Positions 6,556 through 32,000 of a DNA stretch of 32,000 nucleotides are shown here, piece by piece. How positions within the stretch are numbered: position 1 is the stretch's first letter; each line of letters begins with the position of its first letter. The notes below the pieces were generated by a model. The model was not told the DNA's origin, did not search any database, and saw only the letters and a program-made list of their open reading frames with translations. A program made the translations under genes and the position numbers. The DNA lies in contig CAVRAI010000004.1 in the NCBI GenBank assembly GCA_963718915.1, positions 420,001-452,000 on the forward strand, read 5' to 3'. This stretch comes from an uncultured Chloroflexia bacterium. GTDB lineage: Bacteria > Chloroflexota > Ktedonobacteria > Ktedonobacterales > JADMIN01.

Positions 6556-8022
6556 ATGAGCGGAACCGACGAGCCACGTCAGCAGACATCGCTCTTTGGC
6601 GAGGTAACGCCCGCACCGCAAGCCAGGCCGTTGCGCAAGCCTACCACGCCGCAGAGCGCGCTGGATGGGCCCGAGGCGACCAATCTCCCGCCCAATGCGC
6701 GCCCGCTTGCCGCGCGGATGCGCCCGCAGACGCTGGACGAGATTCTGGGGCAGGCTCATCTGCTGGCCGAGGGACGCGCCCTGCGCCGCAGCATCGAACG
6801 CGACCAGACGCCGTCGATGATCTTCTGGGGGCCACCAGGCAGCGGCAAGACGACGCTCGCCAGTGTGATCGCACGGACAACCCAGGCGCGTTTTGTGGCG
6901 CTGAGCGCAGTGACGGCGGGTGTTGCAGACCTGCGGCGCGTGGTGGATGACGCGGCGAAGCTACTACGCGCGACGGGCCGCCGAACCATCCTCTTCATCG
7001 ACGAGATTCACCGCTTCTCCAAGTCGCAGCAGGATGCGATTCTGCCGCATGTCGAGCGCGGAACCGTCACGATGATCGGCGCGACGACCGAGAACCCATC
7101 TTTCGAGGTGAACGCGGCGCTGCTCTCGCGCTCGCGCGTCTTCACCCTGCACGCGCTCAGTGACGACGATATTCGGGCGCTGCTCAACCGCGCGCTACAC
7201 GATGCCGAGCGCGGGCTTGGCGCGCAGCCCATCGCGATGGACGACGACGCGCTCAACGCGCTGGCGACCTACGCCAATGGTGACGCGCGCACGGCTCTCA
7301 ACGCCCTGGAACTGGCGGCAGGTGTCGCCCCAGAGGCAGATGATGGCTCGCGCCACATTGCCCTGGCAACCGTCGAGGATGCCTTGCAGCACCGCGCTTT
7401 GCTCTATGACAAAGCGGGCGAAGAGCACTATAACCTCATCTCAGCGCTGCACAAATCGCTACGTGGCTCTGATCCCGACGCCGCGCTCTACTGGTTGGGG
7501 CGCATGCTGGAGGCGGGGGAGGATCCGCTCTATGTTGTGCGGCGGCTGATTCGCTTCGCCAGTGAGGATGTTGGCATGGCTGACCCGCAGGCGCTTCTGG
7601 TCTGTGTCGCGGCGCAGCAGGCAGTACACTTCGTTGGTATGCCCGAAGGCGCGCTGGCGCTGGCCCAGGCCGTCGTTCATCTGGCGACTGCCCCCAAGAG
7701 CAACGCGGTCTATACCGCCTATGACGCGGTACAGGAGGATGTGCGCGCGACCCGTAATGATCCGGTACCGCTGCACCTGCGCAACGCTCCGACCAATCTG
7801 ATGAAGCAGCTCGACTATGGCAAGGGCTACGAGTATGCGCACGACATCTACGCGGGCCAGCCCGATCCCGACGACCCCTCGCGTCCGCCGCCAGCGCGCC
7901 CACAGGACTACCTTCCGGAGCAGATGAGCGCCCGCGAGTATTACCACCCGACGGCCCAGGGTGCTGAAGCCTCGATTCAGGCATGGCTCAGGCGTCGGCG
8001 CGGACATAGTGAACACGACTAG
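6556..8022 (+). CDS. rarA: Replication-associated recombination protein A (AAA+ ATPase)
   Basis: Walker A GPPGSGKTTLA, Walker B FIDEIHRF, C-terminal MgsA-type region HYNLISALHKSLRGSDPDAALYWL; GGGAGG SD. Confidence 0.95.
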   Translation: MSGTDEPRQQTSLFGEVTPAPQARPLRKPTTPQSALDGPEATNLPPNARPLAARMRPQTLDEILGQAHLLAEGRALRRSIERDQTPSMIFWGPPGSGKTTLASVIARTTQARFVALSAVTAGVADLRRVVDDAAKLLRATGRRTILFIDEIHRFSKSQQDAILPHVERGTVTMIGATTENPSFEVNAALLSRSRVFTLHALSDDDIRALLNRALHDAERGLGAQPIAMDDDALNALATYANGDARTALNALELAAGVAPEADDGSRHIALATVEDALQHRALLYDKAGEEHYNLISALHKSLRGSDPDAALYWLGRMLEAGEDPLYVVRRLIRFASEDVGMADPQALLVCVAAQQAVHFVGMPEGALALAQAVVHLATAPKSNAVYTAYDAVQEDVRATRNDPVPLHLRNAPTNLMKQLDYGKGYEYAHDIYAGQPDPDDPSRPPPARPQDYLPEQMSAREYYHPTAQGAEASIQAWLRRRRGHSEHD

Positions 8023-8032
8023 GAGCAGGCAG

Positions 8033-8620
8033 TTGAACGCCAGGAAGAAGCGCGAGATTATCATCGTGGACTATCGTCCCGAGTGGCCCGATGAATTCGC
8101 GCAGATTGCGGTGGGGCTTCGTGGCGCGCTCGGCGCCTTAGCGCTGCGTATCGACCACATTGGCTCGACCTCGGCGCCGGGATTGTCGGCGAAAGATATC
8201 ATCGATGTCCAGGTGACGGTGGCTGAGCTTACACACGATCTCGATGCGCCATTCGCGCGAGCAGGCTGCGCGCGAGTCGTGGAGATCGATCACGATCATG
8301 TCCCACCGACAATGACAGACAGCGATCACAACTGGCGGAAACTCTACTATCAGCCTCCCGCGGAGATGCGCCCGGCACATATCCACGTGCGTCAGGCGGG
8401 CAGCGCCAATGGGCGCTATGCGCTGCTTTTCCGCGATTACCTGCAGACGCATCCCCTGGCAGCGCTGGCCTATGCCCAGGTGAAGGTGGCGCTGGCGCGG
8501 AAGGATTCCTACGACTGGGATCTGTACTACGATGTCAAGGATCCCGTCTGCGATATCATCATGGCGGGCGCAGAGGATTGGGCCGCGCAAACAGGTTGGC
8601 GCATCGAGCACTATGCCTGA
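8033..8620 (+). CDS. GrpB family protein
   Basis: IIIVDYRPEWPDEF and IDHIGSTSAPGLSAKDIIDVQVTV are GrpB hallmarks. I prefer TTG 8033 (AGGAG 8 nt upstream) over track start 7961, which overlaps rarA. Confidence 0.85.
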   Translation: MNARKKREIIIVDYRPEWPDEFAQIAVGLRGALGALALRIDHIGSTSAPGLSAKDIIDVQVTVAELTHDLDAPFARAGCARVVEIDHDHVPPTMTDSDHNWRKLYYQPPAEMRPAHIHVRQAGSANGRYALLFRDYLQTHPLAALAYAQVKVALARKDSYDWDLYYDVKDPVCDIIMAGAEDWAAQTGWRIEHYA

Positions 8621-8655
8621 GGCTGCGCCAACGAACCGATGTGATGGAGCGCGCT

Positions 8656-9351
8656 ATGCCGACGGTTCAGGTCGACGACATCCAGATGTATTACGAGCTA
8701 CGCGGCGAAGGTCAGCCGTTAGTGTTGATCCTTGGCATGGCGATTGACGTATCCGAGGTCGAGCCGATCATCCGCTGGTTTGCCGAGAGATACCGCGTGC
8801 TGGCGTTCGATAATCGCGGCGCGGGCCGCACCGATAAACCTGATATCCCATATACCATCGAGATGATGGCGAACGACACTATTGGACTCATGGACGCGGT
8901 GGGCATCGAGCGCGCACACGTCCTCGGCATCTCACTGGGCGGGCGTATCGCGCTGGCGCTGACACTCGCGCATCCGGAGTGTGTCGAGAAGCTGGCGCTC
9001 GTCTCCACCTCCGCGCGAGTTCTCCCGCGAAGCTGGCGGTTCCACGCGCTCGGTCTCCTGTCCAGCGTGCCGATGTTTCAGGGTAAGTACCCACAGCCGC
9101 GCTATGCCTTCGTGCGCCAGCGTGACGCATCCACCCTGTTTAACTGCACCGCCAGGCTATCTGAAATACAGGCGCCCACGCTCATCATGCACGGAAGGAA
9201 CGACAGAACCGCGCCGTTCGCGCTGGCTGAGGAGATGCAGCGCGGCATACGCGGCTCGAAGCTGCTCCCCTTCGCGGGCGGCCATCTCTTCTTTCTGATG
9301 CGCGAGCGCCAGCGCTTCCTCGACGCCACCGCCGATTTTCTGGGACGCTGA
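8656..9351 (+). CDS. Alpha/beta hydrolase
   Basis: MPTVQVDDIQMYYELRGEGQPLVLILG, nucleophile elbow GISLGG. ATG 8656 has GGAG 6-7 nt upstream; alternatives are 8644 and 8578. Confidence 0.85.
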   Translation: MPTVQVDDIQMYYELRGEGQPLVLILGMAIDVSEVEPIIRWFAERYRVLAFDNRGAGRTDKPDIPYTIEMMANDTIGLMDAVGIERAHVLGISLGGRIALALTLAHPECVEKLALVSTSARVLPRSWRFHALGLLSSVPMFQGKYPQPRYAFVRQRDASTLFNCTARLSEIQAPTLIMHGRNDRTAPFALAEEMQRGIRGSKLLPFAGGHLFFLMRERQRFLDATADFLGR

Positions 9352-9371
9352 AACAACGGCCCTTTGTCCTG

Positions 9372-9644
9372 TTATCCCCGTGCCAAGGACGTCTTCCGAG
9401 AACGCACGAACAGCACGGCAAGGCATGCGATGAAGACCCAGATGAAGAAGAGCGGCGGCGCCACAAACACGCTCACGACGGACGGCGAGAAAAAGCCATC
9501 CTGGGCAAACGCTCCAGCGGCGACGAGGTGCGCCGGTGCGTTGATGGGTGGCAAGTCAGCGATGAACATGTCTCCCAGCGCGTACAGGATAACGCTTGTG
9601 ATGCCAGCAAGCGCGGTGAGTCGTCTCAGCGATACATCTGTCAT
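9372..9644 (-). CDS. Small hypothetical membrane protein (90 aa)
   Basis: AGAGG SD and 2-3 hydrophobic spans. Lies downstream of, and co-oriented with, the SnoaL-like gene. Confidence 0.45.
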   Translation of the reverse strand: MTDVSLRRLTALAGITSVILYALGDMFIADLPPINAPAHLVAAGAFAQDGFFSPSVVSVFVAPPLFFIWVFIACLAVLFVRSRKTSLARG

Positions 9645-9684
9645 GACGAACCTCTGGGTTGGAATATGCCGTCACTTCGGAGCG

Positions 9685-10131
9685 CTACGGTCGCCCCGGA
9701 AGCGGGATTATGCCTAACTGCAACATCATGGGGAGATCATCGCGCACTGCCCAGTGTTCGGCCAGTTTGCCACCCGCGACCCTGAACCAGTGTGTCTGCC
9801 ATCCGGCGAAATGTCTGCCAGTCGGCGGGATTGTACCGTTGAACGGGCCAAGATTTGTCCCCTCGGAGAAGACACGGCACGAGACCAGGTCTCCTTCGGC
9901 AATGGCCATTTCGACGCGCATCCGCATATCCGGAAACTGCGCGTGTAGCCACTCGGCGGCGCTCCGGGCGTGCTGTGGCCCCTGAACGCTACCCGGCTCC
10001 GACTGGCCAAACGGCGCGACGGCATGCTCGATATACTGCCCCTCCATGATCTCGTCGCACACCGCGTAGTTCTGCCTGGTGAGGATCTCTTCAAAGAATC
10101 GCTGAGCCAGGATCTTGTTCGCGTCAGACAT
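9685..10131 (-). CDS. SnoaL-like ester cyclase family protein
   Basis: ANKILAQRFFEEI...PPTGRHFAGWQTHWFRVAGGKLAEHWAVRDDLPMMLQLG is the typical ester-cyclase pattern; GGGGAG SD. Confidence 0.85.
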   Translation of the reverse strand: MSDANKILAQRFFEEILTRQNYAVCDEIMEGQYIEHAVAPFGQSEPGSVQGPQHARSAAEWLHAQFPDMRMRVEMAIAEGDLVSCRVFSEGTNLGPFNGTIPPTGRHFAGWQTHWFRVAGGKLAEHWAVRDDLPMMLQLGIIPLPGRP

Positions 10132-13252: not shown

Positions 13253-14947
13253 GTGGCGAAAGTAGTCGGAGAAAGCGGCGTAGCGAGTGTGGATGATCCG
13301 CTCAAGCAGCGTGACGGAACACTTTCGACGCTTGGCTATCTGGCGCTGGGTGTTGTCTGCGTCGCGGTATTTCTGACGGCGCTCGATCAGACGGTAGTGG
13401 TGACCGCCCTTGACGCAATGCGCTTAGATGTCGGAGTACCGATTACACAACCTGACCGCATTGCATGGATCGTCAGCGGCTACCTGCTGGGCTACGTGAT
13501 CGCCATGCCATTGATGGGCCGCATCAGCGACATCTTTGGGCGTCGGCGTGTCTTCATGATCTGCCTGGTGATCTTCGGCCTGGGTTCACTGACTTGTGCG
13601 CTCGCGCCACAGCTCGGCAGTTCGATTGCGCCAGACACCACCACACTCGGCGGCGCGCTTTTGACGCCGCTCTACAACGCGGTGCAGGCGATAGTCACTC
13701 CCTTGGGGCAATTGGGGATAGACACGTCAGCGCCGGGCCTCGACATTCTGGTGGCGGCACGCTTTATCCAGGCGATTGGTGGCGGCGCGCTCGTCCCGGT
13801 GGCGATGTCGGTGGCGAGCGATCTCTTTGGCGGTACCCGACGCGGGCTGGCGCTGGGACTGATTGGCGCGGTGACGGAGGCTGGTGGCGTGGTTGGCCCA
13901 GTCTGGGGTGGCTGGGTCACGTCCACCTTGGGCTGGACGTGGATTTTCTGGCTCAATCTGCCGCTGGTGGCGCTCTTGCTGGGCATTGGCGCGTTTTGCC
14001 TGCCGAGGGCGCGCGGCGCGCGTGAGCCGATAGATATTCTTGGCGCACTGATATTTGGCGCATCGCTGATATGTCTAACCCTGGGACTCGGACAGCAAAG
14101 CGGTGGCACGGGTATACTCGATCCCAGGGCGCATAGTACATTTAATCCGCTGTTTCTAGGCGCCGCGGCAGTGCTCTTTGTCACCTTCGTCGTTTTGGAG
14201 TTAACCATTCGCTGGCCAATCGTAGACCTGCGGCTCTTCAAGCGCGTCGCGTTTAGCGCTGCGGCGCTGCTCAGTCTGATAATCGGCGCGGCTTTAATTC
14301 TTGCGCTGGTCGAGATCCCGCTATTCCTGGCATCTCTGCAAAATACGACGGCAATTGCCGCTGGGCTGGCGCTGCTACGGTTGACGGCGCTCGTGCCGGT
14401 GGGCGCGTTCGCGGGCGGGTGGCTCTCTGGCCGCATCAGCTGCCCGCTAACTGCCGCGATTGGGACGATGCTGACGGCGGCGGGTCTCTACCAGATGAGC
14501 CTCTGGCCGATCAACGTGGGTGAGCTTCAGGTGACGGCGGCGACGGTGACGGCGGGCCTCGGTTTCGGACTGGTGATCGCGCCGATCAGCACGAGCGCTC
14601 TTAACGCCAGTCCGGCGAGCCAGGCAGGTGTCGCATCGTCGGTAGTGACGGCGTTACGCATGACTGGGATGACCGTAGGCCTGGCTGCGATGGTTGCCTG
14701 GGGATTGGGTCATCTGCGGGCGTTACTGGCCCATCAGCCGTTGCCAGGGACGCCTGGTGGCCCAACCATCAGCGCCTACCTGACAAGCGTCACCCATGCG
14801 CTGCACCAGGTGTATAGTGACATGTTCCTGGTGACGGCTGTGCTTGCGCTCATCGGTGTGATCCCCGCGCTGCTGCTCTGGCGGCGTGGTAAAGGCGCGG
14901 CGGACAATGCGCCTGTCTACGAAAGCTATGTCGCCCCGCTGGGGTGA
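13253..14947 (+). CDS. MFS transporter, DHA2 (EmrB/QacA, 14-TMS) family
   Basis: ALDQTVVVTALDAM, GRISDIFGRRRVF, about 14 hydrophobic spans. GTG 13253 has GAGAGGAG 9 nt upstream (alternative 13229). It sits 41 nt after the lipoprotein gene. Confidence 0.85.
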   Translation: MAKVVGESGVASVDDPLKQRDGTLSTLGYLALGVVCVAVFLTALDQTVVVTALDAMRLDVGVPITQPDRIAWIVSGYLLGYVIAMPLMGRISDIFGRRRVFMICLVIFGLGSLTCALAPQLGSSIAPDTTTLGGALLTPLYNAVQAIVTPLGQLGIDTSAPGLDILVAARFIQAIGGGALVPVAMSVASDLFGGTRRGLALGLIGAVTEAGGVVGPVWGGWVTSTLGWTWIFWLNLPLVALLLGIGAFCLPRARGAREPIDILGALIFGASLICLTLGLGQQSGGTGILDPRAHSTFNPLFLGAAAVLFVTFVVLELTIRWPIVDLRLFKRVAFSAAALLSLIIGAALILALVEIPLFLASLQNTTAIAAGLALLRLTALVPVGAFAGGWLSGRISCPLTAAIGTMLTAAGLYQMSLWPINVGELQVTAATVTAGLGFGLVIAPISTSALNASPASQAGVASSVVTALRMTGMTVGLAAMVAWGLGHLRALLAHQPLPGTPGGPTISAYLTSVTHALHQVYSDMFLVTAVLALIGVIPALLLWRRGKGAADNAPVYESYVAPLG

Positions 14948-15879: not shown

Positions 15880-16446
15880 TTACCATGAACCCTTGCGAAG
15901 CGCGGGAGCGCTCACCTCATAGCGGTACTCGTCGCTGACGGACCCCTTGAAGAAATCCGCGCCATGAGTTGTGGCAACGAGCGTAAAACCGAGTGCCTCG
16001 ACAAGCTGGATTGAGGCGGTATTGCGCGTATCTATCTCGGCGGCGACACGGCTCACGTGATAATCCTCGAACAGGTGGGCGAGCACGCGCGTGCAACTCT
16101 CCAGCGCATAGCCCTGTCGCCAGAATGGCACGAAGACCATGTAGGCGAGTAAAGCGGTGTGGTTCGCAAGCACGGTCGCCTGAATCGTGCCAACGTAGTC
16201 GCCCGTCGCGTGTTGGCGGAGCGCCCAGTTCAACCAGTCTTCCTGCCCGTCGGGCGAGCGACGGCTGGCGAGAGCCGAGAAGCGCGTTGTGAGCGCTTCC
16301 AGCGAGGATGGTGGATCCTGGGGAATGTAGGTGTACAGGTCGGGAGCCTGGTGCGCCTCGAATAGCGCCGTAGCATGGCCGACGACGAGCGGCTCCAGGA
16401 GCAGCCGTGGCGTCTCAAGTGTGCGTTCTGGGTCTATTCGCGGCAT
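15880..16446 (-). CDS. GNAT family N-acetyltransferase (RimJ/RimL-like), likely the real independent gene
   Basis: The internal ATG 16446 gives 188 aa: MPRIDPERTLETPRLLLEPL...WRQGYALESCTRVLAHLF...NTASIQLVEALGF. This is canonical in size and motifs for this family. Confidence 0.6.
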   Translation of the reverse strand: MPRIDPERTLETPRLLLEPLVVGHATALFEAHQAPDLYTYIPQDPPSSLEALTTRFSALASRRSPDGQEDWLNWALRQHATGDYVGTIQATVLANHTALLAYMVFVPFWRQGYALESCTRVLAHLFEDYHVSRVAAEIDTRNTASIQLVEALGFTLVATTHGADFFKGSVSDEYRYEVSAPALRKGSW

Positions 16447-17319
16447 AGTACCATTCTCGTCTCGAAGAGAGGCTGCGCATACGCAGCCATCCGCGCTGAG
16501 AATAGACAGTGAAGCCCGCTGAAGGATATCGCCAGCGGGCTTTGTGGCTGTGAATCCTTTTGACGTCAGGACACGCTGGCCGCGTAGATGCGTGACGTGG
16601 GTAAAGAGCGCCTCACCACTCGACGAGGTCGTCAGCGCGATCGTTGGGCTGGAGCTAATGTCCGCGCTTGCTTGATCCACGAACTGCCCGTTTGCGTAGA
16701 AGGCGACGGTATCCTGATCGGCGTTATAGAGTACCGCGATCTCATTGGGCACGAAGGCGTCGGCATGCCACGCGACCGTTGACCCGGAAGCCACCAGACC
16801 AGAGGGCTGGAAGTCACCTGCGGTAAATGAGGAATCACACGTGTCATGGCAAATCTGGTAATCACCCTGCTGCGTGATGATGACAAGCAACGAGTTGTCC
16901 AGCAGAATCCCGGCATCCTCCGAGGTTGGCACATCTGCCGCGGGCGCGAGCTGCGCATCGATAAGTACGCCGCCATCAAGCGTGGCGTCATTCCTCGGTT
17001 GGAACTTGCAGCTAGAGTCGCTCTCAATCGCCAGACCTTCCGAAGGGAAGTCACAGCCGACCGCGTTGTCCCAGGCGCCCGTCGTGTCGCCGGGATTCGC
17101 GCTATAGACCTGCTGCCAGCCCACGGGGACTTGCAGCTTCGGCGCGCTCGTGAGTTGCGGCGCAAAGACCGCAAGAGCTATAGCGGCGAGAGTCAGCACC
17201 GATGCGACGATGCCAAAAAAGAGGCCGAATCGCGACGGATGAACTGGTTGAGCAGGCGGCGCGGAATCAGGGACGGTTGGTGGCATTGCCGTTGGTGTGG
17301 TCATGGGTGGCGTCATCAT
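15880..17319 (-). CDS. 479-aa ORF: membrane-anchored LamG/DUF1080-like ectodomain reading in-frame into a complete GNAT acetyltransferase
   Basis: The N-terminal Pro-rich tail and TM FGLFFGIVASVLTLAAIALAVF are followed by a beta-rich domain ending GEALFTHVTHL. A roughly 45-aa low-quality linker spans two strong hairpins, then the GNAT module follows. The start overlaps the prsW-like stop (ATGA at 17316-17319). Confidence 0.6.
   Translation of the reverse strand: MMTPPMTTPTAMPPTVPDSAPPAQPVHPSRFGLFFGIVASVLTLAAIALAVFAPQLTSAPKLQVPVGWQQVYSANPGDTTGAWDNAVGCDFPSEGLAIESDSSCKFQPRNDATLDGGVLIDAQLAPAADVPTSEDAGILLDNSLLVIITQQGDYQICHDTCDSSFTAGDFQPSGLVASGSTVAWHADAFVPNEIAVLYNADQDTVAFYANGQFVDQASADISSSPTIALTTSSSGEALFTHVTHLRGQRVLTSKGFTATKPAGDILQRASLSILSADGCVCAASLRDENGTMPRIDPERTLETPRLLLEPLVVGHATALFEAHQAPDLYTYIPQDPPSSLEALTTRFSALASRRSPDGQEDWLNWALRQHATGDYVGTIQATVLANHTALLAYMVFVPFWRQGYALESCTRVLAHLFEDYHVSRVAAEIDTRNTASIQLVEALGFTLVATTHGADFFKGSVSDEYRYEVSAPALRKGSW
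16471..16542 (-). terminator. Two GC-rich hairpins inside the linker of the 479-aa ORF (intergenic-like)
   Basis: AAGCCCGCTG (16512-16521) / CAGCGGGCTT (16533-16542) form a 10-bp perfect stem. GGCTGCG (16471-16477) / CGCAGCC (16482-16488) form a 7-bp stem. There is no clean U-tract. Confidence 0.35.
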
Positions 17320-24345: not shown

Positions 24346-27232
24346 CTACTCCAAAACATCGAGATTGCAGCCCAGTTGCGCCGCCCGCTGGCGCACCCGC
24401 GTCGCCGCAGCGTCCTGCCCCAATCGCGTGTACATCTCCACCGCCTGGGCGAGCAACTGGCAGCCCTCATCTGTCTTGCGCTGATGTCGCAGCAGGAACG
24501 TCCCAAGCCTTCTTGTATTGGCGCTGAAAGCGGTGCCAGTTGCAGACGCAAGGCAATCGCCAGCGACTGACGATAGCTATGCTCCGCCGCATCGAGGTCG
24601 CCCTCCGCCTCCTGCACAGTAGCCAGATTGAACCAGGCCACGCCTTCGTCGCGCTGGTCATGCACCGCCTGCATGATGGCGAGGTAGCGGGTGTAGTTGG
24701 TCTTGGCGGTCGCCAGATCGCCCTCTTGCCGCGCCAGGTCGCCGAGCAGGGAGAGGGCCACGCCTTCGCCGCGCTGGTCATGCACCGCCTGCATGATGGC
24801 GAGGAAGCGGGTGTAGTTGGCCTTGGCGGTCGCCAGATCGCCTTCCTGCATCGCCAGGTCGCCGAGCAGGGAGAGGGCCACGCCTTCCCGCGCTGGTCAT
24901 GGACTTCACGAAATTCATCGACGCTGGCTGCCGCCATCGCCTTCGCACTCAGGAATCTGGCCAAGTTGCTGTAACAGCGTCGCGTAATGGCCATGCAAGA
25001 TTGCCGCATCCCTGACCGTCGCATCGTTGCGTTCAGCGGCAACCCGGCGCTCAGCCGCAGCCACCGCCGCCGGGAGATATTCTTCGCGCGCCGCTGTCCG
25101 GCTATGAGTCGTTCCAGTAGTTGGCGCTGCCCTGGCAGAGGCGGATCAGCAGCGTGTCGTTGCTGGCGGCGAGCGCCCAGGCAAGCGCGCCAAGGATGTT
25201 GCGCTCGTCGTTTCCAAAGCGGCGTCGCTTCGTGTCATTGCTATAGTCCGCGTACCACTGCGCCACCGCCTGGGAGAGCGCCGCGCGGTCATCGCTGGCG
25301 ATTTGGCTGAAGCGGTCGCGGGCGTCGGTGTAGACGAGCGGGTGCAGCCTGACGCGCTCGCGGTCGCTCTGCTCTGGCATCGCCTCGTCGAGGCCGGGAT
25401 CGGCCAGCCGCAGGGTAATCAGCGCCTTCAGGCTGCGCTCCGCTATCGCCTCATCCGCCGCATCATCCTCCGTCTCATCGTCGCTGGCGACCAGCGCGCC
25501 GATGGAGAGCGCGGCCTCGCGTCCCACATCGCCGGTGGCGAAGGCGCCGAGCGCCACGAAGAGCCGCTGGGCGGGCGCATCGAGCGCGGCGAAGCTCGAA
25601 TCGAGGACGTAGCGCACCGCCTCCGCGCCATCTTCCAGCAGCAGCGCCTTAGTGGGGTTCGCCTCCAGTTCCGCCGCCAGCCGATCCAGCGGCCGACCCA
25701 GGCTGGCCGCGTTGGCCGCCTGGAGCTTCACCGCCAGCGTGTGGCGGCCTAGCAGGGTCACGATGGTTGTCACATCGCGCAGTTCGGCGGCGGTCAGGTC
25801 GAGCGCCGCGCCGCGCCCGTAATACGACGCGAAGAGGTCGAGCGCCTCGGGCAGCGGCAGCACGTCCAGTTTCACACGCGCCTCCCGTGGGATTTCGGGC
25901 AACTCCGCGCGCGAGGTCAACAGCAGCGCCACCCCCGCCGCGCGCAGCGCCTGCGCCACCTCGCCGACATGCGGCCCCGGCTCCATATTGTCCAGCACGA
26001 CCAGCGCCCGCTTCTCGCCGAGTATCTGGCGCGCCCGGTCGCCAAGCGCCGCCAGGTCGGTGTCCTCCGGCTCGCTCCGTCCCGTGGTGAAGCGGGCGAG
26101 AATCTGCCTAAGCAGCCGTACGGGATCATGCTCATCCCTGGCGACCACCACCGCGATGCCATCGGGGAAGGCGTTGGCCACCATCAGGCGGCGAATCACC
26201 TCGGTGGCGAGCGCCGTCTTGCCGATGCCCGCCAGCCCATTGGTCGAGGCGATGCCCGCGATGCCGCCACCGTTCGCGCCAGTGAGCAGCGCCACCACCC
26301 GGTTCGCGTCCTCCTCACGCCCGATAAAGCGCTCGATGCCGGGCAGCGCCCCGATGTCGAACGGCGGCCCCACCTCCACTGGCGGCGCGGGGATCGTGCT
26401 GCCATGGCGGAGGGCCACGAGCAGCGTCGCGAAGGCGGCCTCGTCGGCAACCTCCAGCCGATAGTCCACATACTGCGCCAGCGTCACCAGCGGCGGTACC
26501 GCGCAGGTCTGGCGCAGCACTGGCACGACAATCTTGCCGTCTTTGACATTGGCGCTATTCTTCTGGCTCCACGCCAGCCCGATCTCATCATGCACCCACT
26601 TCGAGGCGGCGGATTGCGAGGTCAGGATGACGAGAAAGATTTCGCGCGTGGTCAGCTCGCGGACAATGTCATCTTGCCAGTAAGTGGCTAGGCGCGATGC
26701 CACCCTCCCAGGTTCCCTCGGCGCCGGGGCCGCCCCGCGAGTCATACCAGGCGTCGAAGCCCGCAGCGCGCAGGCGCTCAAGCAGCGCCTCGCCAAAGGC
26801 GTTGTCGCCGTTGCTGTGGCTGATGAAGACGCGCCGCCGGTCGCTGCCTGGGACGGGCGCGGACACGGAGGCTGGCGCGGGCGCGACCGACGACGGCGCG
26901 GTGGAGACAGTAGACGGGGCGGCAGGGGTTACAGCGGAGGCTAGCGGTTTGGGTCGCAGTAGAGAAGGCGAAGCGCGCAACGCCAGGACGAAGACGCCGC
27001 ACATCAACACGAAGAGCAGCGCGTCGGCGGGTGGCGCTGGCGGCAGACCAGGCAGCGCAATCGCATGGAGGACGGCGGAGAGCGGCGACGGTGGATTGGT
27101 CGTATCTGGCGCCGCGCCGCGCACGTTCCAGACGAGCAGAGCGATATAGCCGAGCAGAACCAGCCACGTGAGGCCAAAGGCAAGCCAGGATGTGAACCGC
27201 ACCCAAAATGACGAATGATTGCCCGTTTTCAT
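24346..27232 (-). pseudogene. 2xTM - TIR - NB-ARC (STAND NTPase) - TPR protein gene with at least 5 frame disruptions
   Basis: ATG 27232 (GGGAGG 6 nt upstream). TM1 WLAFGLTWLVLLGYIALLVW and TM2 ALLFVLMCGVFVLAL. TIR: RRVFISHSNGDNAFGEALLERL...SKWVHDEIGLAW. NB-ARC: Walker A GLAGIGKTALA, Walker B ALVVLDNME, LLLTSR, GRHTLAVKL. TPRs run to a reconstructed C-terminus ...AVEMYTRLGQDAAATRVRQRAAQLGCNLDVLE with stop at 24346-24348. Frame changes are needed near 26690-26740, 25100-25112, 24947, 24887 and 24500-24505. Confidence 0.8.
24637..24899 (-). repeat. Near-identical 120-bp tandem units encoding TPR pairs
   Basis: Unit A (24661-24780) versus unit B (24781-24899) shows about 6 substitutions and 1 missing base (ccttcGccgcg versus ccttcccgcg at about 24887). 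They encode EGVALSLLGDLA(R/M)QEGDLATAK(T/A)NYTR(Y/F)LAIMQAVHDQRG. Confidence 0.85.
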
Positions 27233-27427
27233 GGCGCCTCCCAACGTGGTTGTATAAACGACTTGCGCAAAGTATGGCAGATTTCGTCACTGCCCGCAAG
27301 GCATCAGTTTCCTGTGAACGATCAGCGCGCCAGCAGAAAGGACTGGACAGGCCCAGTAAAATGGAGAAGCAATCTATCGCAGGAGATGATGTGTATTCTG
27401 GCAAGCGGATAGGATAGGGTCAATCGG

Positions 27428-27595
27428 ATGGATCAGGTGAATGTGGCCACTAGCACAGGTCTCATGTCGCCGCAGCCGCCCTCGCCCGCGCCGCCGCAGC
27501 CTGCCTATATGCTGCTTACGCCCGCCGGAGCAACCGACGCCGAGGCTGTCGAGACGGAACTCACTAAGTTGCTCTTCATGCCGAAAAAGAAGTAA
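27428..27595 (+). CDS. Candidate small ORF (55 aa; or 43 aa from ATG 27464)
   Basis: Below the ORF-track cut-off. MDQVNVATSTGLMSPQPPSPAPPQPAYMLLTPAGATDAEAVETELTKLLFMPKKK. The 3' two-thirds has strongly G/C-biased third positions. AGGA/AGGG lie 8-13 nt before ATG 27428. No homology recognised. Confidence 0.25.
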   Translation: MDQVNVATSTGLMSPQPPSPAPPQPAYMLLTPAGATDAEAVETELTKLLFMPKKK

Positions 27596-28848
27596 CAGGT
27601 AGCACTTGGGGGCTGATGCGTCCGACAACCATTGCAGCCAGCACCTCATCTGCGTCGACTTGCTCAGTGGGGGTGAGCGCACCTAGCGGGACGCAGGCCA
27701 TCGCAGCGAGTTTGCCCGGTTCCAGCGTGCCTAACTCATCCGCCAGGCCAAGCGCGTCGGCTCCTCCGAGTGTTGCCAGTCGTAGTAGCTCGGTAGGTGT
27801 CGGCGTCTCGCCAGCCGCGCTATGTAGCTCATGCGACGCGATAGCGTCGTCCCAGACCGCGAGGGAGGGACTACTCGCCAGGCTATCGGTGCCGAGCGCC
27901 AGCCGGACGCCCGCCGCGCGATACAACTCATAGGGTATGCGCCCGCAGTGCAGCCGTGAGTTACTGCGCGGGCAATGCGCCACCGCCGCATTCGCATGGA
28001 GAATGCGTGCCACATCATCCGTGTCCACCTGGATGCCGTGGGCCAGCAGCGGACGCGCCGCCAACACGCCTAACTGGTCGAGATACGCGATAGGAGAGAC
28101 GCATGGCGCGCGCATTGGATGGATCGGCCAGCCAGCGCCGGGATAGAGCAGGTCGGCAATCGGGCCAGTGGCGTCGCGCAGGAACTGGGTCTCGGCGGGC
28201 GACTCGGCGGCGTGGATGGTGAGCGGGACATCCTCGGCGTGACACCACTCGGCTGTGGCTCGCAGTAGTTCGGCGGAGACGGTATACGGCGTATGCGGCG
28301 CGAGGCCGAAGCGGATGCGGTCCTGTGGATACTCGCGGCGCCACTGTTCGATCTGCCGCTGGCCCGCGCGCAAAAGGTCGTCCGCCCGCTGCCGGGTCGG
28401 GGCTGAGCAACTCGAAGTAGACAACGCCGTGGAGGCCGCTCTCGACCAGCGGACGCACGCTCTGGCCGAACGTGCATATCTCGCCGACCGCCACCGTGCC
28501 ACTGGCGACCATCATTTCGACGCCCGCATAGGCAGCCCGCTCGAAATCGTCCGACGTGCGCGTTCGGCTGTAGCTCACCAGCGGATAGATCCACTCGATC
28601 AGCGGCAGGTTATCGGGAACGTGCCCGGCGTGGTGGGTTAGCTCCAGATGTGTGTGGGCGTTGACCAGCCCCGGCAGCAGCGCCCGCTCGCCCAGGTTCA
28701 CCACCCGCGCGCCGGGATAGCGCTCGCGCAGGTATGCGGCCGTCCCCACAGCGACGATGCGCCCAGCCTCGGCGGCGACCGCGCCATCGGGAATCGGCTC
28801 CGCGCTCACCGGGAAGACGTGGCGGGCAGTGTAAAGGGTGATGGTCAT
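27576..28848 (-). pseudogene. Amidohydrolase, ATZ/TRZ-MtaD (nucleoside/nucleobase deaminase-like) family, one frameshift near 28392-28402
   Basis: ATG 28848 (GGAAGG upstream). PGLVNAHTHLELT, IHAAESPAETQFL, HCPRSNSRL, LGTDSLASS. Frame 1 ends meaningfully at ...VVYFELLSPDP; frame 2 continues RQRADDLLRAGQRQIEQWRREYPQDRIRFGLAPHTPYTV. The shift sits in a GGG/GGGG-run region. Confidence 0.8.
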
Positions 28849-29009
28849 GTGGTCGTAACTACCTTCCGTTCGGCGATGTAGCTGCCTGGTGATTGTACCA
28901 TTGTCTGTCTCCACCACAGCTGCCTGTTCCCCACGCCGATAGGCAAATCATCAGGCAAATATACGCTCCTGGGTACACATCAACTCGGCGAGATATACGC
29001 CAACATGTC

Positions 29010-29038: not shown

Positions 29039-29100
29039 AGCAGCAAGCCTGCCATACTGTGTGGAATCACGATTTCACTGTGCTGAGGGATTTTCACGAT

Positions 29101-30789
29101 ATGTCGTTCAAGACCGCGTTCATGAGCCATGCTCATGTCGACAATGCCACATGCGACCCGTATGCGAAGGCGCTACGCGAACGAGGCGTTCACCTCTACT
29201 ATGATCGCGAAGAACCGATGGAATTGGACGGCAGACTCCTCAGCGAGGTTCTGGTGAGAGAGCTGAGGCAAGCCCAAACCCTTATCCTGATGGCTACTCC
29301 AGCGGCTGTAGCGTCTCAATGGGTGATCGAGGAGTATAACTTCTTCCACACGCTCATGATGCGCGACGCCACGCGACAGATTATCCCAGTGATGATCGAG
29401 CAGTGTGAACTCCCTGGCTTCTTGCCGTCGCGGGGACGGATCGACGCGACCTCGCTGTCTCCAGATGAATTAATTGATCGGTTGATAAAAGCGCTGACGG
29501 TGAAGGACGCGCCAGACGACGCCACAACTCCTCCATATGTACCACGGCCCGCGCCAATTACGCCCACGCTGGAGTCACCGCTTAGTTCAGGCACAAATCC
29601 ATCTCCAGCGCCACAGCCTGGAACTCCGCCATCGGCTAAGCCACAACCCACGCCAAAATCGCGCCCATCGCCTCAACGCGCTCCGAAGTCTTCCACTCCT
29701 CCGCTCAAACGCAGGCGTAGAATCGCGCGGCGTGTGTTCTTGACAGTGGGTACAACTGGTATCCTCGCGGCCACTGCTGGTGCGTTCTTCTGGCTTCACA
29801 ACGATCCATCGGCGTTGCCACCATTCTTTACGCAGCCGACCGCGACGCCGCAACCGACGGCCACGCCGCAGCCGACCGCGACGCCGCAGCCAACCGCGAC
29901 GCCGACCGCGATTAGCGCATACCATGGACATTCTGCCGCAGTCAATAGCGTCTCATGGTCACCTGATGGACGATTCATCGCTTCGGCCAGTGACGATCAC
30001 ACGGTACAGGTATGGGATGCGACAACAGGCGTCAAACAGAACACCTTTTTGGGTAGCCCTGGCGCGGTATTGACGGTGGCGTGGTCACGTGATGGGTCTC
30101 TCATCGCAGCGGCGGGCGATGATGATTTTGTAGAGGTGTGGCAGGCAGGCAGTAATATCTTTGCCCCTTTGCTTATCTATCGTGGTCACACGAGTGCGGT
30201 GAACTCGGTTGCCTGGGCGCCACACGGGGCGCGTATCGCCTCGGCAAGCAGTGACAAGATTGTGGAGGTGTGGGACGCGGTGACAGGCTCGCGCATCTGC
30301 ACCTGTATCGGACACGCGAACGCGGTGAACGGCGTGGCCTGGTCGCCTGACGGAACACGCATTGCCTCGGCCAGCGCCGACAAATCGGCGCAGGTGTGGG
30401 ATGCGTCAAGGGGAAGCCATGTCTATACCTATCATGGTCACACGGACTGGGTGAATGCGGTGGTCTGGTCACCGGACAGGACGCGCATTGCCTCGGCGAG
30501 CAATGATAAAACCGCGCAGGTGTGGGATGCGACGACGGGAGCCAACCCCTACGTCTACCGTGGACACCTGGATTATGTGCTTTCGGTCGCCTGGTCGCCC
30601 GACGGTCGGCGCATTGCCTCGGCCAGCTATGACACGACGGTGCAGGTATGGGATGCGTCTGATGGCGCCCACGTCTATACCTACAATGGACACTCAGCGC
30701 CAGTGAATTACGTTGCCTGGTCGCCCGATGGGACACGCATTGCCTCGGCCAGCGCTGACAATACCGTACGGATATGGAGTCCCCAATAG
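29101..30789 (+). CDS. TIR domain - Pro-rich linker - Tat-like signal-anchor/TM - (PTATPQ)4 - 7-bladed WD40 propeller protein
   Basis: I prefer ATG 29101 (GAGGGA 10 nt upstream; aligns with paralog start M..KTAFMSHAH) over track start 29059. TIR: KTAFMSHAHVDN...LILMATPAAVASQWVIEEYNFF. KRRRRIARRVFLTVGTTGILAATAGAFFWL follows, then seven GH...WSPDG.RIASAS.D...VWDA repeats. Confidence 0.9.
   Translation: MSFKTAFMSHAHVDNATCDPYAKALRERGVHLYYDREEPMELDGRLLSEVLVRELRQAQTLILMATPAAVASQWVIEEYNFFHTLMMRDATRQIIPVMIEQCELPGFLPSRGRIDATSLSPDELIDRLIKALTVKDAPDDATTPPYVPRPAPITPTLESPLSSGTNPSPAPQPGTPPSAKPQPTPKSRPSPQRAPKSSTPPLKRRRRIARRVFLTVGTTGILAATAGAFFWLHNDPSALPPFFTQPTATPQPTATPQPTATPQPTATPTAISAYHGHSAAVNSVSWSPDGRFIASASDDHTVQVWDATTGVKQNTFLGSPGAVLTVAWSRDGSLIAAAGDDDFVEVWQAGSNIFAPLLIYRGHTSAVNSVAWAPHGARIASASSDKIVEVWDAVTGSRICTCIGHANAVNGVAWSPDGTRIASASADKSAQVWDASRGSHVYTYHGHTDWVNAVVWSPDRTRIASASNDKTAQVWDATTGANPYVYRGHLDYVLSVAWSPDGRRIASASYDTTVQVWDASDGAHVYTYNGHSAPVNYVAWSPDGTRIASASADNTVRIWSPQ
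29833..29910 (+). repeat. 18-bp tandem repeat x4.3 encoding (QPTATP)n
   Basis: cagccgaccgcgacgccg / caaccgacggccacgccg / cagccgaccgcgacgccg / cagccaaccgcgacgccg / accgcg. Confidence 0.85.
30232..30786 (+). repeat. 126-bp phased WD40-coding repeats with conserved nucleotide core
   Basis: CGCATTGCCTCGGC recurs at 30358, 30484, 30610 and 30736 (exact 126-bp phase). A diverged copy lies at about 30232. Confidence 0.8.
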
Positions 30790-31491: not shown

Positions 31492-31555
31492 TACAACACG
31501 GAACCATTGTTCGCCAGATCAAGATGCGCTATCAAGCCGCTGAGGATGTAACGCA

Positions 31556-32000
31556 ATGCTGTATAAAACTGCGTTCATGAGCCATGCACATGCTGATAAC
31601 GCCAAGTGCGATCCCTATGCGGATGTTTTGCAGAAACGTGGCATCAGCCTTTATTATGACCGCGCTAATCCACAGGTTGGCCGTGACCTCGGCATAACGC
31701 TGGAGCGTGAAATCCAGCAGGCCAACGCTTTGATCGTGATGGTGACTCCTTCAGCGCTCAAATCTTTTTGGGTAACTGAAGAAATCAGCATGTTCTTCTC
31801 ACTCATGGCACAGGATCCGTCGCGATTGCTGATCCCGGTGAAGCTGGAGCCTTGCCAATTGCCGCCCCGCCTTGCTGCCCGATGGTGGATTGATGCGACA
31901 ACTCTGCCAATGCCGCAGGTGGTGGATCAATTGGCCAAAGCGCTCGAAGTGGCAGGCCCACCGTTCGTTTCATCGCCTGCACCGTCGCCTTCTGTGCGCC
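31556..32000 (+). CDS. TIR-domain protein, paralog of 29101..30789 (3' end beyond window)
   Basis: Open-ended and not in the ORF track. GAGGA lies 9 nt upstream. MLYKTAFMSHAHADNAKCDPYADVLQKRGISLYYDR...LIVMVTPSALKSFWVTEEISMFF...VAGPPFVSSPAPSPSVR is roughly 45% identical by eye to the other TIR module and enters a Pro-rich linker at the edge. Confidence 0.85.
   Translation, partial: MLYKTAFMSHAHADNAKCDPYADVLQKRGISLYYDRANPQVGRDLGITLEREIQQANALIVMVTPSALKSFWVTEEISMFFSLMAQDPSRLLIPVKLEPCQLPPRLAARWWIDATTLPMPQVVDQLAKALEVAGPPFVSSPAPSPSVR

Follow-up and report, generated by a model that had tools for sequence, protein, structure and literature searches.

The window, the 32,000-nucleotide stretch of DNA that was analysed, carries on its minus strand a gene whose reading frame is broken several times, and it raises the question of whether this gene is decaying or is intact and misread in the assembly. 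In a six-frame translation (27450→24200), six successive coding segments from 27232 to 24346 stitched to one protein, and the repaired ORF ran from an ATG at 27232 to a stop at 24346-24348 with no in-frame stops. The stitched protein contained, in order, two TM helices, a P/A linker, TIR_2, NB-ARC, and TPR:

24346..27232, minus strand: whole TM–TIR–NB-ARC–TPR gene, 961 aa once five single-base repairs are made
27119..27196, minus strand: predicted TM helix 1, residues 13-38 (Kyte-Doolittle 19-mer above 1.6)
26954..27040, minus strand: predicted TM helix 2, residues 65-93 (Kyte-Doolittle 19-mer peak)
26840..26953, minus strand: Pro/Ala/Ser-rich linker, predicted disordered (composition; equivalent region of the homolog P0003 at pLDDT below 50)
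26419..26830, minus strand: TIR domain (Pfam TIR_2), with its RRVFISHS start at 26813-26836 and the putative catalytic-Glu motif SKWVHDEI at 26581-26604
25804..26313, minus strand: NB-ARC (AP-ATPase) NTPase core (Pfam NB-ARC, invariant columns)
26215-26238, 25981-26004, and 25909-25926, minus strand: NB-ARC motifs Walker A GLAGIGKT, Walker B LVVLDNME, and LLLTSR, respectively
25723-25749 and 25336-25356, minus strand: GRHTLAVKL and RLHPL, just downstream of the NB-ARC core
24349..25134, minus strand: TPR sensor region with a conserved C-terminal cap (…RKTDEGCQLL…LGC) (Pfam TPR_12/TPR_2, PDB LGN/Pins TPR matches)

This is the architecture that the sequence-only reading had proposed, including the clean C terminus, and Pfam, the hydrophobic peaks, and the repaired ORF all agreed with it. 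As that reading anticipated, the stitched segments matched both the TIR and the NB-ARC profiles. TIR_2 (PF13676) scored 63.8 bits (gathering, 28) over residues 135-270, which correspond to profile positions 1-122/122 and span the first of the frame breaks listed below, while NB-ARC (PF00931) scored 41.1 bits (gathering, 23.5) over residues 306-475, covering only positions 3-174 of the 248 in the profile. The motif SKWVHDEI occupies residues 210-217; S274, W276, and E280 (P0003 numbering) were invariant in 35 homologs and are kept in the window copy, and we take the Glu to be the catalytic residue by analogy with plant and SARM1 TIRs. The Walker A, Walker B, sensor TxR, GxP-like, and MHD-like His motifs were all present on invariant columns of the family alignment. 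Downstream, TPR_12 scored 46.5 bits, with additional matches to TPR_2 and TPR_8, and a tandem repeat of 120 nt × 2.2 was found by TRF at 24636-24901. A sequence search of the PDB gave only remote TPR (LGN) and NRC2a matches. A SLATT-type identity of the two-TM region was rejected, with no Pfam match at E≤0.1, and no Rfam family was found in the window. With three TIR genes in a span of 8 kb, the window looks like a conflict-gene neighbourhood.

We placed the frame breaks by frameshift-aware alignment to the intact homologs P0003, P0005, P0008, and P0002 and by nucleotide alignment to the syntenic ortholog. A GC3 frame plot was too noisy at this composition, and Pfam profile coverage and the frameshift-aware aligner were used instead. 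The events were as follows:

26689, minus strand: frame break 1, +1, CCT[A]GCC, within the TIR domain
about 25211..25233, minus strand: compensated +1/−1 pair, with 7-8 codons reading 'TKRRRFGN'
25110, minus strand: frame break 2, +1, AAC[G]ACT
24944, minus strand: frame break 3, +1, TGC[G]AAGG
24888, minus strand: frame break 4, −1, missing C, GGCGAAGG→GGGAAGG (GG[-C]GAAGG), relative to the sister repeat and the ortholog
24502, minus strand: frame break 5, −1, missing A, GGGAACG→GGGACG

The five net breaks lie where they had been located from the letters, and the pair at 25233/25211 is additional; there the ortholog has 'KADAALES', which fits the family pattern DxALxxDE. All lesions in the window copy were ±1 indels, none of them in a homopolymer run of ≥3 at clearly aligned sites, and the inserted bases were mostly not copies of the neighbouring base. 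Real mutations seldom insert a base different from its neighbours, and a long-read consensus at low coverage often contains such insertions. The occurrence of breaks outside homopolymers had been offered as an argument for decay, but it rules out only homopolymer-type platform error. The fallback offered alongside it, poor assembly across the repeats, comes closer to the evidence, although frame break 4 is the only one of the gene's seven indels to lie within the 120-nt TPR tandem repeat. In a check for a methylation-type explanation, no 4- or 5-mer around the 26 indel sites survived multiple testing (best raw P=0.002, 175 tests). DGR-type hypermutation of the sensor was rejected, the lesions being indels and not adenine substitutions, and no reverse transcriptase was matched among the window ORFs scanned against Pfam.

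The two genes on either side served as flanking controls:

19332..23780, minus strand: dnaE, intein-containing, with four ±1 events (23207, 21255, 21202, and 21153)
27579..28917, minus strand: amidohydrolase, with one +1 event at 28390

Five frame events were found outside the TIR-STAND gene, within the three to five that had been estimated, and all of them were in these two genes. The proposed enrichment in the TIR-STAND gene held against all other verified coding sequence (the gene makes up 13% of the length and has 7/12 events, P=2.5e-4) but not against the two flanking genes (P=0.07 for all indels and P=0.21 for net frame breaks). The three-gene region as a unit differed from the rest of the window (P=1e-5), and the verified genes at 2.8-19.1 kb (about 14 kb) had no frame break. 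The excess of indels belongs to the region at 21–28.4 kb and not to the gene alone. The dnaE gene is under strong constraint, with omega (dN/dS) values of 0.067 and 0.090 and 95% amino acid identity to its ortholog over the N-terminal part. Its breaks cannot be lesions that the cell tolerates, unless the genome has another dnaE. The events at 21255, 21202, and 21153 fall within the intein, and a premature stop follows at 21221. A split intein, or "fractured gene," was rejected as the explanation of this stop because the ortholog's intein is read in a single frame throughout and three ±1 events have to be invoked for that of the window.

The syntenic ortholog (L001) belongs to a Microflora Danica MAG, which was assembled from Nanopore reads alone with Flye and one round of Medaka (PMC12313526). 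Bins below 40x coverage need short-read polishing (PMC9262707). A genome scan for closer relatives returned L001 only (72% best-segment protein identity, 80% nucleotide identity), and none was found in metagenomes with a protein scan and a DNA pattern spanning break 2. Comparison with orthologs had been suggested as a search for intact versions: the closest 76 homologs were intact Ktedonobacterales proteins, and L001 was itself broken, at different sites. Its TIR-STAND gene had 7-8 frame events and its dnaE and amidohydrolase genes had 3 each; none of these coincided with an event in the window, and each copy was in frame where the other was broken. One possible −4 event in the L001 gene was in a poorly aligned stretch, and its other frame-breaking events were ±1. 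In both assemblies the indel density was highest in the TIR-STAND gene (2.4-2.8 per kb, versus 0.7-0.9 in dnaE).

The repaired window and L001 proteins were 77% identical over 958 residues with no in-frame stops, and neither copy carried nonsense substitutions or larger deletions. Omega between the two copies of the TIR-STAND gene was 0.30 overall and 0.08-0.58 by segment, including segments downstream of breaks. The window copy kept 42/43 invariant and 50/53 near-invariant family residues, among them the motifs FISHS, SxWxxxE, GxGK, hhhD, TSR, HTLA, and RLHP. The substitution pattern indicates that the TIR-STAND gene is under purifying selection, and a very recent inactivation would be compatible with an omega of 0.30.

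Assembly error is the most likely source of the breaks because similar breaks occur in the essential dnaE gene and because the same genes of the sister genome are broken at different sites. The locus is probably an intact membrane-anchored TIR–NB-ARC–TPR STAND (NLR-like) conflict or immunity gene, and its fragmentation is probably, mostly or entirely, an artefact of indels in a long-read consensus, for which we infer a long-read platform behind the window's own assembly. Several observations speak against an artefact: the clean stretch at 2.8-19.1 kb requires a strongly nonuniform error process; the indel density peaks in the TIR-STAND gene in both assemblies, and the same three genes are affected in both, which random low coverage does not predict; no enriched sequence motif accounts for the indel sites; and the omega of 0.30 is above that of the neighbours. 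An indel hot-spot common to the two independent assemblies, reflecting a local property of the DNA such as a base modification that disturbs nanopore base-calling, is less likely than the membrane-tethered clade proposed below.

Genuine decay was the explanation preferred in the sequence-only reading, and the results did not support it. We consider it unlikely that a costly NADase effector that is no longer needed has recently been accumulating frame-shifting indels, although indels are denser in this gene than anywhere else in the window (7 in 2.9 kb, with the enrichment given above), its omega exceeds that of its neighbours, its ortholog is broken too, and defence genes turn over rapidly. 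The adjacent gene content indeed differs between the window genome and that of L001, with a rearranged, variable gene set at 29-32 kb. However, with no event shared between the 7 in the window and the 7-8 in L001, two independent decays would be required, and the dnaE and amidohydrolase genes bear similar lesions in both genomes. The near-complete set of invariant residues also argues against decay, as does the absence of nonsense substitutions and larger deletions. By our own estimate, which takes each indel to be accompanied by about 10 neutral substitutions, some 3% of them stop-creating, approximately 2 stops would be expected per copy. The ±1 events, with insertions that mostly do not copy the neighbour, are unlike slippage or the deletion bias generally reported for bacteria. 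The deposited sequence does have the frame-disrupting lesions of a pseudogene (five net breaks), whereas confinement of the lesions to the gene, relaxed selection (omega near 1), and a mixed lesion spectrum were not found.

More doubtful still is a chimeric consensus, in which strains, related co-occurring species, or paralogs were collapsed and in which some haplotypes may be truly lesioned and others intact, with a published consensus that corresponds to no single haplotype. The indels gather in the block most conserved between the two species (80-90% nucleotide identity) and are absent from blocks of 73-77% identity, as expected if foreign reads map to the conserved block, and this block adjoins the variable gene set at 29-32 kb. 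The gene also has many paralogs with near-identical TPR units, and these soil MAGs are reported to be limited by, among other things, microdiversity (PMC12313526). On the other hand, six of the gene's seven indels are outside the tandem repeat, dnaE is more conserved than the TIR-STAND gene yet has fewer indels, and an intact 1285-aa paralog-like gene, which has 14 near-identical TPR units, lies on a contig named in a similar way. Programmed recoding, in which ribosomal frameshifting or transcriptional slippage yields the full protein, has nothing in its favour except that the segments join to one protein and is effectively refuted, with five or more events of both signs needed in one gene, no slippery heptamer or homopolymer at any site, and an ortholog that is in frame at every site.

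For structural comparison of the presumably intact protein, we used the AlphaFold model of P0003 (pLDDT 83), a 52%-identical homolog, and not a model of the window protein itself. Foldseek matches of this model included RPP1, NRC2/3/4, ZAR1, Apaf-1, and CED-4 (E from 1e-10 to 2e-7), and for P0003 the model predicts the NBD–HD1–WHD fold of Apaf-1 and plant NLRs. The best matches of the modelled NB-ARC, winged-helix, and helical-sensor region were Apaf-1 (3sfz, E=2.9e-9) and CED-4 and an archaeal STAND-TPR protein (6mfv, E=1.4e-13), but they lack both a TIR and a membrane anchor, their effectors are CARDs or are missing altogether, and their sensors are WD40 or of other kinds. Plant TNLs (RPP1, PDB 7crc, and ROQ1) likewise have a TIR followed by NB-ARC and likely share the logic of an oligomerisation-activated TIR NADase; the P0003 model matched RPP1 with an E of 1.7e-10 over 577 columns at a sequence identity of about 14%. 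The catalytic-Glu motif of plant TNLs is SKWCLxEL, which the family motif SxW[VC]xxE fits. Unlike plant TNLs, the window protein has a TPR sensor, not an LRR with C-JID (Pfam gave no LRR match in the stitched protein), and is predicted to be membrane anchored. Membership in the plant TNL family was rejected, since the C terminus is TPR.

Among bacterial proteins, the TIR–AP-ATPase(NB-ARC)–TPR STAND proteins (Leipe et al. 2004; Kaur et al. 2020, PMC7159879) have the same domain order, and AP-ATPases with N-terminal TIR and C-terminal TPRs have been described (PMC7159879). Like the STAND proteins of multicellular or filamentous bacteria, the window gene is from a filamentous lineage, the Ktedonobacterales of the Chloroflexota. 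Unlike the bacterial TIR–AP-ATPase–TPR STANDs, the window copy and its closest relatives add two N-terminal TM helices and a P/A-rich linker, and no description of this arrangement ahead of a TIR was found in the literature searched. The Avs/AVAST proteins (Gao et al. 2020, 2022; PMC13581612) are also single-polypeptide STANDs with an N-terminal effector and a C-terminal TPR-like sensor; some Avs carry TIR (10.64898/2025.12.03.692087), and TM effectors are among the listed STAND N termini (PMC13581612). However, the window NTPase is of the NB-ARC/AP-ATPase type, and the PADLOC-DB 2.0 hits were confined to generic TPR and TIR/ThsB-type models, with none to an Avs model. Thoeris ThsB and other bacterial TIR NADases share the TIR fold with its conserved Glu (ThsB-type TIR models gave weak PADLOC/Pfam matches, E=4.6e-5 to 0.02), but ThsB acts as a small signal generator on its own and relies on a separate effector protein (ThsA and others), whereas in the window protein a STAND switch and a sensor share one polypeptide with the TIR.

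By analogy with plant TNLs (RPP1/ROQ1), Apaf-1, and bacterial Avs, we infer a mechanism with NADase, oligomerisation, and membrane steps. The two N-terminal helices would fix the protein to the cytoplasmic membrane so that its TIR, NB-ARC, and TPR parts face the cytoplasm, and the TPR array would bind a trigger, e.g., a phage or other non-self protein. Binding would relieve the autoinhibition of NB-ARC (ADP to ATP exchange) and lead to oligomerisation, after which the clustered TIR domains could build composite NADase sites with the conserved SKWVHDE Glu at their centre. The resulting depletion of NAD+, or an ADPR-derived signal, would cause growth arrest or cell death.

The membrane anchor had been called unusual, which is not the case in this family: of the 42 homologs with a recognisable TIR start, 24 had one or more TM-like segments N-terminal to the TIR, 19 of them two. 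Both predicted TM helices are kept in L001, and the model of P0003 has helices at 28-60 and 94-114, the first of them a long helix at the position of TM helix 1 of the window protein. Close homologs share the NB-ARC–TPR module with swapped N termini (XRE-HTH, SARP, nucleoside phosphorylase, and cyclase). Tentatively, and with clearly less confidence than for the artefact, we propose that the gene is unbroken in vivo and that its product falls in a clade, specific to the Ktedonobacterales, of membrane-tethered TIR-NLR-like receptors (2TM–linker–TIR–NB-ARC–TPR) whose anchor is functionally important. The anchor might put the sensor where phage DNA or proteins enter or, alternatively, might couple TIR activation to membrane damage. 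If this is true, the clade would be an uncharacterised variant of bacterial NLR-type immunity; no experimental study of a clade member was found in the literature searched.

Clusters of ±1 frame breaks can mimic gene decay in MAGs built from long reads alone, even when the breaks lie outside homopolymers, and the fastest check is to look for different breaks of a similar kind in essential neighbours and in orthologs. A pseudogene at this locus would matter little and is probably not the true state of the gene. Overall, the locus is one further member of a populous TIR–NB-ARC–TPR family in filamentous Chloroflexota, many of whose members are membrane anchored, and the proteins of this family are candidates for the study of TIR-NLR-type immunity outside plants.

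Three-frame translation of minus-strand positions 27450 to 24200 gave six successive open segments, which joined end to end into a single protein of ~961 aa. Hydrophobic stretches at residues 13-38 and 65-93 were followed by a Pro/Ala/Ser-rich linker and then by the TIR domain. Pfam TIR_2 matched residues 135-270 over the full profile, spanning the first frame break (E=2.8e-17, 63.8 bits versus a cut-off of 28), NB-ARC scored 41.1 bits (cut-off, 23.5), and TPR_12, TPR_2 and TPR_8 also matched. Thus, the TM-TIR-NB-ARC-TPR anatomy claimed in the sequence-only reading was correct, and the stitched segments were recognized by both TIR and NB-ARC profiles.

The breaks were placed by a frameshift-tolerant protein-to-DNA aligner against four intact homologs, and a second placement by DNA alignment to the syntenic ortholog locus L001 agreed. 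The five positions proposed from the sequence alone each lay within a few bases of the aligned sites.

Frame events in the TIR-STAND gene and its two flanking genes (window positions)
28917→27579, minus strand: amidohydrolase, flanking, with an extra base at 28390
26689, minus strand: frame break, extra A, CCT[A]GCC
~25233/25211, minus strand: compensated +1/−1 pair, 7-8 codons become 'TKRRRFGN'
25110, minus strand: frame break, extra G, AAC[G]ACT
24944, minus strand: frame break, extra base, TGC[G]AAGG
24888, minus strand: frame break, missing C, GGCGAAGG→GGGAAGG
24636-24901: TPR tandem repeat, 120-nt × 2.2
24502, minus strand: frame break, missing A, GGGAACG→GGGACG
23780→19332, minus strand: dnaE, flanking, with an extra C at 23207, GACT[C]TGG
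21255, 21202 and 21153, minus strand: dnaE intein events (−1, −1 and +1) within 100 nt

Deleting three bases and adding two restored a 2886-nt ORF with no in-frame stops. Only the break at 24888 falls within the tandem repeat, and at the compensated pair, where the window reads 'TKRRRFGN', the L001 ortholog has 'KADAALES' and the family pattern is DxALxxDE. Every lesion in the window was ±1, none at sites with clear alignment fell in a homopolymer run of three or more, and the inserted bases mostly differed from the neighboring base. Such a spectrum is typical of low-coverage long-read consensus errors and is at odds with slippage-driven mutation and with the deletion bias commonly reported for bacteria; it fits errors better than decay.

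Frame integrity of the other window genes was judged by Pfam profile coverage. The genes at 2.8-19.1 kb (~13.8 kb in total) were uninterrupted, including two MFS transporters, a glycolipid-binding protein, a methyltransferase, MgsA, GrpB, a hydrolase, SnoaL, MerR, ADH, LppX, GNAT and PrsW. Twelve indels were found in 21.1-28.4 kb versus zero detectable in the remaining verified genes (P=1e-5), whereas the TIR-STAND gene did not differ clearly from the two genes beside it (all indels, P=0.07; net frame breaks, P=0.21). The enrichment described earlier therefore held for the three-gene region but was not specific to the gene. The dnaE intein (~20560-21545, minus strand) sits at the GYGFNK|SHAAAYG site, with junctions '…FNK|CAHGSTEIQL' (Cys1) and '…IVSHN|SHAAAYG'. 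It gave only a weak Pfam Intein_splicing match, and its middle of ~200 aa had no Pfam match and by eye was Vsr/DUF559-type nuclease-like. The window intein has a premature stop at 21221, while L001 is single-frame through the same stretch.

Among species-representative genomes, L001 (CAVPDP010000019.1, 'uncultured Chloroflexia bacterium isolate MFD00031.bin.2.123') was the sole related locus, and no closer relative was found in genome and metagenome collections. It shares the order MFS/PrsW block, dnaE, TIR-STAND and amidohydrolase, with nucleotide identities to the window of 87% for dnaE and 80% for the TIR-STAND gene. The sister genome offered no intact version, as its TIR-STAND copy was itself fragmented by seven frame events (11645, 11716, 11936, 12441, 12532, 12603 and 12662). 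None coincided with the window sites, which project to 10543, 12012, 12033, 12134, 12299, 12355 and 12736, and in the DNA alignment the broken sites of each copy read in frame in the other. The L001 dnaE carried three insertions (15038, 15483 and 16123) and its amidohydrolase three indels (7253, 7345 and 7409); in blocks of 73-77% identity, gaps were multiples of three or lay in intergenic or poorly aligned stretches. In both independent assemblies the ±1 indels lay in the same three syntenic genes (window 21100-28400, L001 7250-16130), with no site in common, and the adjoining blocks had almost none in either. Additionally, L001 has an extra 2.3 kb between amidohydrolase and TIR-STAND gene (7512-9784), absent in the window and coding on the opposite strand for a DUF6932 protein and an M48-like peptidase. 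Another gene-content difference was the C-terminal GNAT domain part (15880-16580, minus strand) of a 479-aa ORF (15880-17319), which has no L001 counterpart (775 nt in the window versus 153 nt in L001).

Omega (dN/dS) between window and L001, from codon alignments in repaired frames, was 0.30 for TIR-STAND (dN 0.15, dS 0.51; 772 codons), 0.067 and 0.090 for the N- and C-terminal parts of dnaE (839 and 597 codons) and 0.16 for the amidohydrolase (433 codons). All TIR-STAND segments, including those past the breaks, fell at 0.08-0.58. The repaired TIR-STAND proteins were 77% identical over 958 residues (95% for the dnaE N-terminal part), and neither repaired ortholog contained an in-frame stop. 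By our rough estimate of ~10 neutral substitutions per indel, ~3% of them stops, 7-8 real indels per lineage would predict about two nonsense codons in each copy.

The breaks are most economically read as consensus errors clustered in a poorly resolved 7-kb region, with the gene itself undamaged in the organism. Genuine recent decay, the interpretation originally favored for the five breaks, is unlikely: similar ±1 breaks occur in flanking dnaE and amidohydrolase, the lesions of the two copies lie at wholly different sites, the expected nonsense codons are missing and omega is low in every segment. The L001 assembly, a Microflora Danica MAG, is Nanopore-only and was built with Flye and a single Medaka round (PMC12313526); the same group showed that bins below ~40x coverage require short-read polishing for HiFi quality (PMC9262707). 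Strain microdiversity beside a variable gene set and cross-mapped reads from related species in a more conserved block are both plausible causes of the error cluster, and base modification is a further candidate for the cluster common to both assemblies. No sequence motif was enriched around the indel sites of window and L001, and the two genomes differed by a rearrangement at 29-32 kb.

Searching 5.8 billion proteins gave 116 matches, among them the window's own 533-aa fragment (P0001; NCBI/ENA, contig of 1,051,705 bp). All organism-named matches were Ktedonobacterales, and the closest 76 were full-length (530-1476 aa). The nearest intact homologs (P0003 at 52% identity and P0005 at 44%; also P0008, P0011 and P0025) share the window's order of hydrophobic helices, P/A linker, TIR, NB-ARC and TPR, and keep the C-terminal cap '…R(D/x)EGCxxL…LGC'. 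Among 42 homologs with a recognizable TIR start motif, 39 had SxW[VC]xxE and 24 had at least one TM-like segment ahead of TIR (two in 19); therefore, the membrane anchor, previously called unusual, is common in the clade and no oddity of this locus. The protein search also found the NB-ARC–TPR module joined to XRE-HTH, SARP, nucleoside-phosphorylase or cyclase N-termini, and such effector swapping is typical STAND behavior. An alignment of 35 homologs had 43 invariant columns, including FxSH, SxWxxxE, GxxGIGK, the Walker B Asp, TxR, HTLA and RxRxH, and the repaired window protein retained 42 of these and 50 of 53 near-invariant residues. The AlphaFold model of P0003 (pLDDT 83) showed two long N-terminal helices, a disordered linker, an α/β TIR, NB-ARC and a TPR solenoid, with archaeal STAND-TPR 6mfv, plant TNL RPP1, NRC/ZAR1/Sr35, Apaf-1 and CED-4 as best PDB matches.

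Other loci were also recorded. A TIR_2 + 7×WD40 protein (576 aa; 29059-30789, plus strand) and a TIR_2 ORF continuing beyond the window end (31544-32000, plus strand) bring the count to three TIR genes in 8 kb, suggestive of a conflict-gene neighborhood; in L001 they are ordered differently. At the locus encoding the intact 1285-aa homolog P0002 (L002; ENA ERZ25039538 contig_21839), DprA domains at 1-619 and 13835-14101 flank a ~13-kb stretch with a Mrr_cat–ParA-like gene and the TIR-NB-ARC-TPR gene, resembling the insertion of an island into dprA; the DprA N-terminal portion was itself called in two pieces. A paralogous ORF pair (625-2079 and 1-597, both minus strand) has coiled-coil-like N-termini, a TAT signal ('SRRTLLKWGGVGAAAALA') and a repetitive Gly/Ala/Ser-rich C-terminal part, with no Pfam family except the TAT signal.

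The analysis established the domain order, retained motifs, fold relations and purifying selection. By analogy with plant TNLs, Apaf-1 and bacterial Avs, the protein would sense a trigger through its TPR array, after which NB-ARC would change state and oligomerize. The clustered TIR domains might then become an active NADase, and NAD+ depletion or an ADPR-derived signal could arrest or kill the infected cell or filament compartment. Two TM helices place both ends of the anchor on the same membrane side, compatible with a cytoplasmic TIR-NB-ARC-TPR, and the anchor may serve localization or an additional effect directed at the membrane.

In multicellular bacteria, TIR–AP-ATPase–TPR proteins were reportedly described by Leipe in 2004. 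Such proteins are documented (PMC7159879), TM segments are among STAND N-terminal modules (PMC13581612) and Avs proteins bearing TIR are known (10.64898/2025.12.03.692087). The TIR-STAND protein lacks an LRR and so is not a plant-type TNL; the curated PADLOC Avs models did not match it, its matches there being limited to generic TPR and TIR/ThsB-type models. The 2TM-plus-TIR combination, which we did not find discussed in the literature searched, is a clade-level variant. Overall, the gene belongs to the already described TIR–AP-ATPase–TPR kind, and the frame breaks that drew attention to it are probably an artifact.
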